A DNA stretch of 40,697 nucleotides, taken from a virus. Its lineage: Duplodnaviria > Heunggongvirae > Uroviricota > Caudoviricetes. Where the stretch lies: the IMG/VR virus record IMGVR_UViG_2541047891_000003, one strand, 5' to 3'. The position numbers were made by a program, and so were the translations under genes. Position 1 is the stretch's first letter. Every line of letters begins with the position of its first letter. Below, in pieces: positions 5,072-16,361 of this stretch. The notes under the pieces were generated by a model. It was not told where the DNA came from. It did no database searches and saw only the letters and a list, made by a program, of their open reading frames with translations.

Positions 5072-5129
5072 AAAAAGGGCGGCAGAGCAGTCACGGAGTA
5101 AAACTGATACCGCCAAACGTCACCAGAAA
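5072..5129 (-). ncRNA. dicF: DicF small regulatory RNA (ftsZ-targeting sRNA)
   Basis: Minus-strand sequence TTTCTGGTGACGTTTGGCGGTATCAGTTTTACTCCGTGACTGCTCTGCCGCCCTTTTT matches the DicF sequence I recall; ends in a GC stem plus T-run; about 170 nt upstream of dicB as in Qin. Confidence 0.85.
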
Positions 5130-11294: not shown

Positions 11295-11468
11295 TTATTT
11301 ATTTGGGGAGACAATGTCCTGAAGCGTGACGATTACTTCTTCATCTGTATCTGTATTTCGGAGTTGATATGTAATGTCGTCGTTTCTAATAATTTGCACT
11401 ACAAGCCATTCTCCATTTTTTTCACATAAGTGAACAGTACTGTTTTCCGATATACCATGAACGGTCAT
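11295..11468 (-). CDS. Hypothetical 57-aa protein (not in the ORF track)
   Basis: Hand-translated MTVHGISENSTVHLCEKNGEWLVVQIIRNDDITYQLRNTDTDEEVIVTLQDIVSPNK; AAGG about 9 nt upstream; AT-rich. Confidence 0.4.
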   Translation of the reverse strand: MTVHGISENSTVHLCEKNGEWLVVQIIRNDDITYQLRNTDTDEEVIVTLQDIVSPNK

Positions 11469-11679
11469 TTTTATACCTTTTGTGTTGTGTGAAGGAGCAG
11501 TATAGTCAGAAATGAGACAAGTGAAAGGGGATAGAAAGTAATAGTTTGTTTTTGTAGAATTGCTGCGGGTGCTTGAGGCTATCTGCCTCGGGCATGAACA
11601 CCAACGGCAGATAGAGAAAAGCCCCAGTTAACATTACGCGTCCGGCAAGACGCTTAACATTAATCTGAGGCATATCTGT

Positions 11680-11880
11680 ATGCGACACATAAAGATTAGC
11701 CTCTTAACAGTAAGAAATCAACTAACAGGGGGCTGTAATGCGAAGGAGCTATGTGTTTTGTCTGGTGGTGGTTTGCATCACCATTCTGATATTTGTCGGG
11801 ATGGTTCGCGGTTCGCTATGCGAGCTGCACATCAGGCAGGGAAACACAGAGCTTTCAGCGTATTTAGCCTACGAAGTTGA
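11680..11880 (+). CDS. mok: mok-like overlapping reading frame of a hok-family locus
   Basis: 66-codon ORF starting upstream of, and overlapping in another frame, the hok-like toxin ORF, as in hok/mok/sok loci. Confidence 0.4.
   Translation: MRHIKISLLTVRNQLTGGCNAKELCVLSGGGLHHHSDICRDGSRFAMRAAHQAGKHRAFSVFSLRS
11693..11721 (-). promoter_or_regulatory. sok: Candidate promoter for a Sok-like antisense RNA (minus strand: -35 TTGATT, 17-bp spacer, -10 TAATCT)
   Basis: Promoter-like hexamers on the minus strand positioned so the transcript would be complementary to the mok start region. Confidence 0.35.
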
Positions 11881-11890
11881 AAAACGTTAA
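11738..11890 (+). CDS. hok: Hok/Gef-family type I toxin (50 aa)
   Basis: Hand-translated MRRSYVFCLVVVCITILIFVGMVRGSLCELHIRQGNTELSAYLAYEVEKR; matches the Hok/Gef pattern (TM helix, SLCE motif, conserved C-terminal AYxAYE); GGGGG RBS upstream; not in the ORF track. Confidence 0.85.
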   Translation: MRRSYVFCLVVVCITILIFVGMVRGSLCELHIRQGNTELSAYLAYEVEKR

Positions 11891-11961
11891 GAGCTACGGC
11901 GGGGAGCAATTCCCGCCACTCTTTAAGTTGTCAGGTATCCTCAATGCACCCGCACTTAACC

Positions 11962-12012
11962 CGCTTTAGCGCTGATTTATGGGGATCCCTCAGCGCTTCG
12001 GCGGGTTTTTTG
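11962..12012 (+). terminator. Strong Rho-independent terminator (nested hairpin CCGC..GCGCTGA...TCAGCGC..GCGG then TTTTTT)
   Basis: Long imperfect hairpin followed by T-run 12007-12012; about 70 nt after the hok stop, consistent with a hok mRNA 3' end. Confidence 0.7.
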
Positions 12013-15209: not shown

Positions 15210-15929
15210 ATGGGTATGGATGACAGCACTCTGCTGAGGAACTCTTCACTTTTTATTGCTTATATGGGCTGTCTTGGATGGGGAAGCGCTTATTTCTATG
15301 GATGGGGGACTTCCTTTTACTATGGCTTTCCATGGTGGATCGTCGGGGCTGGCGTTGATGATGTGGCCCGAAGTTTGTTTTATGCTGTGAGCGTTATCGT
15401 TATATTCCTTACTGGATGGGGAGTAGGTATTGTTTTCTTTTTAGGCATAAAACAAAAAAACAATATACAGAATTTGAGTTTTATCAGACTTTTTCTGGCA
15501 ATATTGCTGCTTTTTATTCCGCCTGTTCTGGAGTTTTCGGTAATTCATCAGCACGTTGAGCCAGATGTGCTGTTTTTTTGTGTTATTGCTGCCTTTACAA
15601 TTACGCTTTTTGTCAGGTCAGGAGGAAGACTTATTTCAGTCAAATGTTTTTCGGAAGTGTCTTTTATTCGCCATCACCGAATTGAGTTTATTATGGCTGG
15701 ATTCATGATTTATTTCTGGACATTCTCTCTTATTGCCGGTTGGTATAAACCTCAGTTTAAGAGGGAATATCAGACGATCCACTATGAGAATACTTGGTAT
15801 TACGTTCTTGCACGCTATGATGATCGTCTGGTTTTATCGAAATCGTACAGTAATGGGAGTTCTGCATTCGTTATACTTAATAGCGGGCAGATTGATGACT
15901 TTGAAATTAATGTAGTCAGAGTTCGTTAA
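15210..15929 (+). CDS. Hypothetical polytopic inner-membrane protein (about 5 TM helices plus a ~70-aa C-terminal soluble domain); moron between Q and the tRNA/lysis genes
   Basis: 239-aa ORF, AT-rich, Trp/Phe/Tyr-rich TM segments; possible own promoter TTGACT-17-TTATGT near 15160; no family recognised. Confidence 0.6.
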   Translation: MGMDDSTLLRNSSLFIAYMGCLGWGSAYFYGWGTSFYYGFPWWIVGAGVDDVARSLFYAVSVIVIFLTGWGVGIVFFLGIKQKNNIQNLSFIRLFLAILLLFIPPVLEFSVIHQHVEPDVLFFCVIAAFTITLFVRSGGRLISVKCFSEVSFIRHHRIEFIMAGFMIYFWTFSLIAGWYKPQFKREYQTIHYENTWYYVLARYDDRLVLSKSYSNGSSAFVILNSGQIDDFEINVVRVR

Positions 15930-16051: not shown

Positions 16052-16127
16052 GGCCCTTTAGCTCAGTGGTGAGAGCGAGCGACTCATAATCGCCAGGTCG
16101 CTGGTTCAAATCCAGCAAGGGCCACCA
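16052..16127 (+). tRNA. ileZ: tRNA-Ile2 (anticodon CAU, lysidine type; could alternatively be tRNA-Met)
   Basis: Cloverleaf with acceptor GGCCCTT/AAGGGCC, anticodon loop CTCATAA, T-loop TTCAAAT, CCA end; close to E. coli ileX as I recall it. Confidence 0.8.
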
Positions 16128-16128
16128 A

Positions 16129-16205
16129 CCGCCACTAGCTCATCAGGAAAGAGCGTCAACCCTTTAAGTTGAGAGTGCGAGGTTCGAGTCCCCGGTGGCG
16201 GTCCA
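16129..16205 (+). tRNA. tRNA with atypical anticodon loop CCTTTAA (anticodon UUU = Lys if canonical; C at position 33)
   Basis: Acceptor CCGCCAC/GTGGCGG, D-arm GCTC..GAGC, anticodon stem TCAAC/GTTGA, T-loop TTCGAGT, CCA end; identity uncertain. Confidence 0.6.
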
Positions 16206-16207
16206 GT

Positions 16208-16283
<76 letters not shown>

Positions 16284-16286
16284 TAT

Positions 16287-16361
<75 letters not shown>

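Follow-up and report, generated by a model that had tools for sequence, protein, structure and literature searches.

The window analysed here, a 40,697-nt stretch of tailed-phage DNA (IMG/VR record IMGVR_UViG_2541047891_000003), very probably carries an intact hok/mok/sok type I toxin–antitoxin module in the nin-like region of a lambdoid prophage, with a mechanism like that of plasmid R1 and a recombinant origin. The locus adds a hybrid to a family that is already thoroughly known, and RefSeq has a name for the toxin gene. The one feature out of the ordinary is the descent of its control region and its toxin from two different hok lineages. A first-pass annotation had proposed a full hok/mok/sok architecture at this place, and the presence of R1-type elements at homologous positions, a match to an Rfam model and a predicted Sok gene all point to that arrangement. 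The same annotation described the locus as unannotated. This holds for mok and sok, which have no annotation, and fails for hok, the one coding sequence recorded. The implied novelty was overstated, given that RefSeq already annotates the coding sequence and that hok/sok loci of prophages have been well described.

The locus region is identical to Escherichia coli UMEA 3108-1 contig KE701552.1, and a copy that is 99.3% identical, also annotated as a Hok/Gef family protein, occurs in ETEC4085. The gene order of the prophage starts with an integrase, an exonuclease-like gene, DicF, a CI-like repressor, YdaS and YdaT, continues with replication-region genes, DUF977, the hok locus, DUF968, RusA and the Q antiterminator, and ends with four tRNAs, a holin, a lysozyme and a terminase. 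The hok locus shares the orientation of the early-right genes and its neighbours include phage genes with unassigned function. Its placement on the + strand of a nin-like region, outside a relBE-hok operon, was borne out by this order: the locus lies between the replication genes and DUF968/RusA/Q, no RelB or RelE was found among the neighbours, and the Qin-type relBE-hokD arrangement does not occur here. Prophage hok/sok is a well-described kind of element, known in lambdoid prophages since the hokW/sokW locus of phage 933W. Genes for hok are enriched about four-fold in prophages (10.1101/2025.08.07.668861).

The toxin gene, hok, spans positions 11738 to 11890 of the + strand and encodes a protein of 50 aa (MRRSYVFCLVVVCITILIFVGMVRGSLCELHIRQGNTELSAYLAYEVEKR). 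The product scores 65.4 bits against the Pfam family HOK_GEF (PF01848; cut-off 22, E 3.5e-18), which settles the earlier assignment to the Hok/Gef family. It also matches PHROG 251, 'MokW-like host killing' (E 7e-13), and RefSeq WP_021555242.1, 'Hok/Gef family protein', is an exact match. All family-wide residues are kept in the toxin (M1, C13, T15, L27, C28, E29 and E38); in R1 numbering, the conserved Hok residues are M1, C16, T18, L30, C31, E32 and E41 (10.1101/2025.08.07.668861). A single N-terminal hydrophobic segment, the run YVFCLVVVCITILIFVGMV, is seen in the translation. The protein falls below the NCBIfam cut-offs for the HokA equivalog (62.9 bits vs 89) and for the Hok family (56.6 bits vs 73), and it is a Hok/Gef member outside the named NCBIfam equivalogs. 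Its identity is 94% to Salmonella, 84% to Citrobacter and 78% to Enterobacter homologues, 58% to HokA of E. coli K-12, the closest K-12 relative, 47% to R1 Hok and 35% to hokW. The toxin has no match among the PADLOC defence-system protein models, and a defence role for hok might be proposed by analogy solely with the R1/T4 report cited in PMC8621323.

Two sequence variants distinguish the toxin gene. The W21G substitution is absent from the 11 other cluster members that were aligned and from 15 other Hok sequences that were compared, and is restricted to two assemblies, UMEA 3108-1 and one other. Elsewhere, this position is occupied by tryptophan (10 of 16 sequences), by tyrosine in R1, or by leucine in the hokC, hokD and hokW types, and it is hydrophobic or aromatic in every other Hok examined. 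The Shine–Dalgarno (SD) sequence of hok, at 11728–11732 on the + strand, reads GGGGG at the studied locus, and the same site reads GGAGG in the Salmonella, Citrobacter and K-12 hokA loci. In R1, A-to-G changes adjoining the hok SD abolish toxicity (PMC9841398).

The mok reading frame (11680 to 11880, + strand, 66 aa) overlaps hok out of frame. The overlapping upstream frame noticed by the first-pass annotation is present as an open reading frame, and the alignment reveals that its start position and frame are shared with R1 mok and with the Salmonella homologue. The mok product has no protein family match in Pfam or NCBIfam, and none was expected. The putative mok SD, GAGG at 11667 to 11670, aligns with the R1 mok SD, G105–G108 (PMC9841398). 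The element termed dcb (GCCUC, 11699 to 11703, + strand) would pair with the mok SD once the mRNA is processed, a role described in PMC9841398. Of the ten loci aligned, nine share the motif that includes it, AGCCTCTTA, and the tenth, K-12 hokC, has GCCTCTTA, which is one base shorter.

A candidate hok promoter is located at 11532 to 11560 on the + strand (TAGAAA, a 17-nt spacer and TAGAAT), with the -10 box at 11555–11560 and the +1 position at about 11567; the consensus scan gave it 9 of 12 matches. The -10 box is kept in all E. coli and Salmonella homologues, and the -35 region differs from theirs. This -35 region is foreign, because homology to the other loci starts only at about position 11553. 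The replacement hexamer, TAGAAA, has 4/6 consensus matches vs 3/6 for the usual TTGCGG. The predicted full-length hok/mok mRNA extends from 11567 to 12011 (+ strand, about 445 nt), its 5′ end being placed where the Rfam model begins and where the R1 +1 aligns. The leader (11567 to 11740, + strand, 174 nt) matches Rfam RF01794 'sok' in the sense orientation with 98.2 bits (gathering score 59, E 3.5e-21). Taken at face value, this match would put Sok on the + strand. That assignment was rejected, since the model spans the hok leader in sense, with the same strand and extent in 14 of 14 control loci, including K-12 hokC, where the hokC strand is matched and sokC is annotated on the opposite one.

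The fold of the transcript contains the elements by which hok mRNAs are recognized. The 444-nt stretch 11567–12010 has a minimum free energy (MFE) of -196.6 kcal/mol (z -11.7, 100 shuffles), and the hok start region is sequestered in this full-length fold. Folding the region for such elements, as the first-pass annotation had proposed, revealed the tac/fbi, ucb/mok SD and dcb elements, the metastable 5′ hairpin and the 3′ stem-loop. The 5′-terminal tac element (11567 to 11578, + strand, GGGUGCUUGAGG) pairs with fbi (11939 to 11951, + strand, CCUCAAUGCACCC) through 12 bp of the full-length MFE fold. The duplex energy is -21.5 kcal/mol, compared with -13.6 ± 2.0 kcal/mol for shuffled 3′ regions, which is about 4 SD better. 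The pairing covaries, R1 and Erwinia/Serratia having compensatory variants (UCUGGAU / AUCCA.GAG in the latter). The K-12 hokC control, in which IS186 separates hokC from its 3′ end, lacks it.

The remaining elements of the leader follow the same plan. The metastable 5′ hairpin (11569 to 11595, + strand; -18.8 kcal/mol, z -4.5) would sequester tac in the nascent transcript; such a hairpin has been described for R1 (PMC9841398). In the full-length MFE fold, the mok SD is bound by the anti-SD element ucb (AGCCCC, 11620 to 11625, + strand) through C59:G101, C57:G103, C56:G104 and G55:C105, with A102 opposite C58. The same A·C mismatch occurs in R1, as A106·C74 (PMC9841398). An alternative pairing between tac and ucb is formed when the first 59 nt of the mRNA are folded by themselves, and it is significantly stable. 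The GC-rich 3′ stem-loop at 11898 to 11917 (+ strand; -15.6 kcal/mol, z -3.9) is the expected 3′ end of the processed mRNA, and disruption of the R1 terminal stem at the corresponding position destabilises the truncated mRNA (PMC9841398).

We further compared the closed and open states of the RNA. Forcing the tac/ucb pairing reveals a closed-to-open energy gap that drops from 10.4 kcal/mol in the full-length mRNA to 4.9 kcal/mol in the truncated form, the same direction as in the R1 control (12.8 to 1.7 kcal/mol). The MFE fold of the truncated mRNA stays closed by these 4.9 kcal/mol. So does that of the validated R1 mRNA, by 1.7 kcal/mol, and the thermodynamic switch test is therefore undiscriminating.

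The predicted antisense gene lies on the - strand, within mok. Its putative promoter (11693 to 11721) consists of TTGATT at 11721–11716 and TAATCT at 11698–11693, separated by 17 nt, as the first-pass annotation had reported. The motif is weak by consensus (7/12 matches) and was not listed by the consensus scan, as too few positions match. Nor is such a motif significant in its own right: the window holds 11 copies of the relaxed pattern TTG-N20-TANNNT, where 17.9 ± 4.2 are expected by chance. The proposed promoter is present and homologous to those of sokW and R1 sok, although the motif alone carries no more than chance. It is column-aligned with the -35/-10 regions upstream of R1 sok and 933W sokW, whose boxes, read from the alignment, are TTGCGC-17-TATCCT and TTGCCT-17-TAACCT, respectively. 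The Salmonella and Citrobacter loci have the identical promoter sequence, and the Enterobacter locus retains both hexamers. In the alignment, the predicted Sok start (a G at 11686) coincides with the 5′ ends annotated for sokW and K-12 sokC. The weight of this candidate promoter would come from its homologous position, not from its motif.

The predicted Sok RNA (11615 to 11686, - strand, about 72 nt) folds with -29.3 kcal/mol (z -5.3) into a single-stranded 5′ tail (11686–11672), a long hairpin (11671–11621) and a UUUUCUCU tail, and spans the SD as well as the ATG of mok. The predicted 5′ tail pairs with its own target with -33.8 kcal/mol. Pairing with the hokW, O157, IncY, Salmonella and R1 targets reaches only -8 to -13 kcal/mol. 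Tail–target cross-pairing with loci of the hokW/hokD type lies between -7 and -14 kcal/mol, and cross-repression with them is therefore unlikely. Cross-talk with such loci through the shared Sok hairpin was rejected for the same reason, the tail–target pairing being too weak. By these modelled energies, the locus looks insulated from co-resident hok/sok copies despite the hairpin that it has in common with them.

The transcript would end at an intrinsic terminator (11958 to 12011, + strand), formed by a compound hairpin at 11958–12007 (-30.3 kcal/mol, z -6.2) and T6 at 12006–12011. The strong compound terminator seen by the first-pass annotation is thereby confirmed, and the consensus scan missed it as its loop is too long for the scan rules. 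The compound shape is due to a 32-nt palindromic insertion (11966 to 11997, + strand) in the loop of an ancestral terminator hairpin with the arms CCCGCT and TCGGCGGG. Neither the O157 nor the Salmonella loci contain the insert. Three other genomes have the identical 32 nt next to an IS4-family transposase pseudogene, with two distinct right-hand flanks among them. The inner palindrome was consequently rejected as a native feature of the hok terminator, as it adjoins the IS4-family pseudogene in other genomic contexts. The insert strengthens a terminator hairpin that must be degraded for activation.

A comparison along the locus reveals two sources. The segment 11553–11666, which includes the -10 box, tac through ucb and the Sok hairpin, matches the 933W hokW and O157 'hokD' loci with an identity of 93–100%, which from the +1 onward (11567–11666) is 100% to both. 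The Sok hairpin part has 32–37% identity to the Salmonella, Citrobacter and Enterobacter loci. By contrast, the segment 11693–11952 (Sok promoter, toxin, 3′ UTR and fbi) is 94–98% identical to Salmonella vs about 50–69% to hokW. The 26 nt between them (11667–11692), comprising the mok SD–ATG stretch that is also the Sok 5′ tail, are unlike both parent lineages. In K-12 hokA, the leader upstream of the IS150 contains a short Sok hairpin of the Salmonella type, implying that the short hairpin is native to the HokA-clade toxin and that the studied form is derived. These identities indicate that the locus is a recombinant, with a leader and Sok body from the lineage of hokW and the O157 'hokD' loci. 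The Sok promoter, the toxin and the 3′ UTR stem from a HokA-clade lineage that is best represented in Salmonella and Citrobacter.

The two halves differ greatly in frequency. Among 5,426 complete E. coli genomes, 11 contain the toxin half and 11 contain the hybrid junction. The leader half occurs in 4,257 genomes, with up to ten copies per genome. Recombination, chimeras or hybrids are unmentioned in a comprehensive survey of Hok that comprises 44,248 loci (10.1101/2025.08.07.668861). We tentatively suggest, as a possibility that we do not favour, that the locus arose by a natural swap of an antitoxin cassette between hok lineages, with the breakpoint exactly at the specificity determinant 11667–11692, which is predicted to be orthogonal to both.

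The nearest relatives of the control region are the hokW/mokW/sokW loci of the Stx2 phages 933W and Sp5 (AF125520; PMC8621323) and the O157 'hokD' loci, which are likewise prophage-borne. In 933W and O157, the leader with the long Sok hairpin is that of the studied locus over 11567–11666 and the Sok 5′ end is aligned; the Sok 5′ tail and the hexamers of the Sok promoter differ. The O157 'hokD' copy occupies the same slot upstream of the DUF968 gene and has the same sequence beyond the terminator. The 933W hokW locus lies at another genome position, with a toxin that is only 35% identical, and mokW is annotated there as an in-frame extension of hokW, whereas the mok studied here is out of frame.

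The toxin is most similar to those of the HokA-clade loci, that is, K-12 hokA/sokA and uncharacterised prophage homologues of Salmonella, Citrobacter and Enterobacter. In the Salmonella locus, the Sok promoter, the out-of-frame mok, the 3′ UTR and fbi are 94–98% identical. The HokA-clade loci have a short Sok hairpin (GACTATAAATC...) that is unalignable with the studied one, given the 32–37% identity noted above, and their predicted Sok is about 53 nt long vs about 72 nt here. The R1 hok/mok/sok locus shows the same order of tac, metastable hairpin, ucb, mok SD, out-of-frame mok and dcb (PMC9841398), and has likewise the Sok promoter inside mok, a 3′ stem-loop and fbi before the terminator (PMC9841398). 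It differs in being plasmid-borne, as opposed to the chromosomal prophage location of the studied locus, and in a toxin with 47% identity, a shorter Sok hairpin, and compensatory changes in tac and fbi.

Because each R1 element is found at the homologous position, element by element, we infer an R1-like mechanism at the RNA level with high confidence. A weak constitutive promoter, with its -10 box at 11555–11560, would give rise to a stable mRNA of about 445 nt. In the nascent mRNA, tac would be kept in the 5′ hairpin. In the full-length mRNA, tac would be paired with fbi and ucb would lie over the mok SD, so that neither translation nor Sok binding could occur. Slow exonucleolytic trimming from the 3′ end to the stem-loop 11898–11917 would remove fbi; tac could then take ucb, and the mok SD would be displayed in a hairpin closed by dcb. 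Ribosomes on mok would open the hok start, and the 50-aa Hok would enter the inner membrane and collapse it.

While the prophage is present and transcribed, the 5′ tail of Sok, about 72 nt long and presumably short-lived, would pair with the mok initiation region, blocking mok and marking the duplex for RNase III. Hok would be made once Sok synthesis stops, possibly through loss of the prophage, shut-off of transcription by an infecting phage, or prophage induction. By analogy, the net roles of the module are most likely prophage addiction and membrane damage at induction. The role put forward by the first-pass annotation, post-segregational killing or abortive infection, is putative. Precedents for R1 hok/sok are plasmid maintenance and T4 exclusion (cited in PMC8621323).

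Several features could attenuate the module: the W21G substitution, the GGGGG hok SD, the replaced -35 region and the terminator insert may each weaken expression or toxicity. None of these four candidates breaks a defined element. The same features, namely a substitution at an otherwise W/Y/L position found in two assemblies only, an SD with GGGGG instead of GGAGG, a -35 region replaced at the left recombination boundary and a terminator insert that resembles an IS end, would also fit a locus with the full hok/sok architecture that is attenuated or dead, a relic in decay, as most hok loci of the K-12 chromosome are, that neither kills nor stabilises. The larger closed-to-open gap of the truncated mRNA relative to R1 (4.9 vs 1.7 kcal/mol) points the same way. 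We regard such a relic as unlikely, however, since neither a frameshift nor a stop codon nor an IS interrupts the locus, all the regulatory pairings are preserved (K-12 hokC, by contrast, has lost fbi), and the Sok gene is retained, as expected if the toxin is still dangerous. Moreover, the TAGAAA -35 hexamer (4/6) is no worse than the usual TTGCGG (3/6). A protein gene, or a protein antitoxin, in the 60-aa open reading frame of the minus strand (11506 to 11688) is extremely improbable. Although present in the list of open reading frames, it was rejected as a gene for want of a Pfam match; its GTG start lies inside the Sok 5′ tail, it crosses the hok leader where conservation tracks RNA pairing, and it is unannotated in the RefSeq and 933W records and uncalled in the source assembly.

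A different balance of roles deserves more weight than a relic, while still being the less probable reading: the module may work, with its main role in the release of phage through membrane damage at induction, as reported for Sp5 hokW-sokW, and with addiction and defence against other phages as secondary roles. In Sp5, sokW RNA vanishes and HokW appears after mitomycin C in a RecA-dependent manner (PMC8621323), and the phage yield halves without hokW-sokW (PMC8621323). The studied locus is collinear with the early-right genes, so read-through from the early promoter at induction would be expected to collide head-on with the Sok promoter. On the other hand, Sp5 carries its locus at another site of the phage genome and with another toxin (35% identical), the reported effect is only two-fold, and roles in plasmid maintenance and T4 exclusion have been documented for R1 hok/sok (cited in PMC8621323); the sequence does not tell these roles apart. 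An intact, R1-like hok/mok/sok module of recombinant origin, with prophage addiction and membrane damage at induction as its most likely roles, is the reading that we prefer.

The locus illustrates how small type I toxin genes and their RNA partners escape open reading frame tracks filtered by length and annotation restricted to coding sequences. With W21G and the variant SD, it also offers natural candidates for mutations that attenuate such a module. The hybrid itself constitutes a natural test case for which part of Sok sets specificity, and for whether the leader and toxin halves of hok loci are freely interchangeable. If the proposed cassette swap is true and general, recombination or divergence at a short stretch would insulate co-resident prophage hok/sok copies from each other, or would allow the capture of antidotes, and it would explain how up to ten near-identical leaders can reside in one E. 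coli genome without cross-protection.

The toxin gene of the hok locus differs from its relatives at codon 21 (11798–11800, + strand), which reads GGG (Gly), whereas all 11 of the other cluster members aligned carry TGG (Trp). The equivalent residue in more distant Hok proteins is W, Y or L, and glycine at this position was seen only in UMEA 3108-1, the host of the prophage, and in the assembly GCA_024373425.1. The substitution may be an attenuating mutation. Further downstream, the Tyr45 codon TAC is followed by GAA (11870–11875, + strand), which creates a TACG context of the kind that has been tied to possible TadA A-to-I editing, with a change of Y to C, in a survey of Hok proteins (10.1101/2025.08.07.668861). 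The adenine of this codon (11871) is unpaired in the predicted RNA ensemble.

The Shine-Dalgarno sequence of hok reads GGGGG (11728–11732, + strand) and is shared with both hybrid relatives compared, ETEC4085 and L017, in contrast to the GGAGG found at the Salmonella, Citrobacter and K-12 hokA loci. In the plasmid R1 system, A-to-G changes adjoining the hok Shine-Dalgarno sequence abolish toxicity (PMC9841398).

Within the hok terminator, the inner palindrome (TTAGCGCTGATTTATGGGGATCCCTCAGCGCT; 11966–11997, + strand) constitutes a 32-nt insertion in the loop of a simple ancestral terminator. E. coli A10, MLI104K1 and WP5-S17 have the same 32 nt at the 3' end of a transposase pseudogene of the IS4 family, and among these three genomes the right-hand flank of the element is identical between MLI104K1 and WP5-S17. 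The insert is probably the remnant of an IS end. Because terminator-arm-like sequence flanks the element in each case, there are hints of a target preference for GC-rich hairpins.

At the opposite end of the locus, similarity to all other hok loci begins abruptly at ~11553, inside the hok promoter between its -35 and -10 boxes (region 11500–11553). A different upstream sequence, AAAAACGGTTTGCGGGAAAAGGAGAGTTAAG, is common to most of the hok copies in E. coli and Salmonella prophages. Directly upstream of the promoter lies a 57-aa ORF (11295–11468, - strand) that the source assembly annotates as a gene and that has no match in Pfam or PHROG.

Elsewhere in the prophage, a full-length DicF sRNA gene (5077–5128, - strand; 76.7 bits) is located in the early-left region. 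Four clustered tRNA genes, Met-CAT, Lys-TTT, Thr-TGT and Gly-TCC (16052–16361, + strand), are positioned between the Q antiterminator and holin genes, where the ETEC4085 relative has only those for Thr and Gly. The 239-aa ORF between Q and the tRNA genes (15210–15929, + strand) matches PHROG 1521, of unknown function, and its PADLOC match to AbiC is only marginal (E 0.0036).

A scan with Rfam revealed three hok leaders in tandem in Serratia inhibens (L010, 1322–2432), with a spacing of ~478 nt, and two in each of two Erwinia genomes (L007 and L008, both 1324–2057). The tac/fbi pairing, which closes the full-length mRNA, is weakened in copy c of Serratia. Some 0.8 kb upstream of hok, the Salmonella prophage with the closest toxin homologue (L004) carries genes for IsrK and C4 antisense RNA (444–630).

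In every locus tested, namely that of the window (11567–11740) and the comparison loci L002–L015, the match to the Rfam model RF01794, named 'sok antitoxin', lies on the hok-sense strand and extends from +1 as far as the hok AUG. The loci tested include K-12 hokC, where sokC is annotated on the opposite strand. Automated annotation based on RF01794 would assign sok to the wrong strand.
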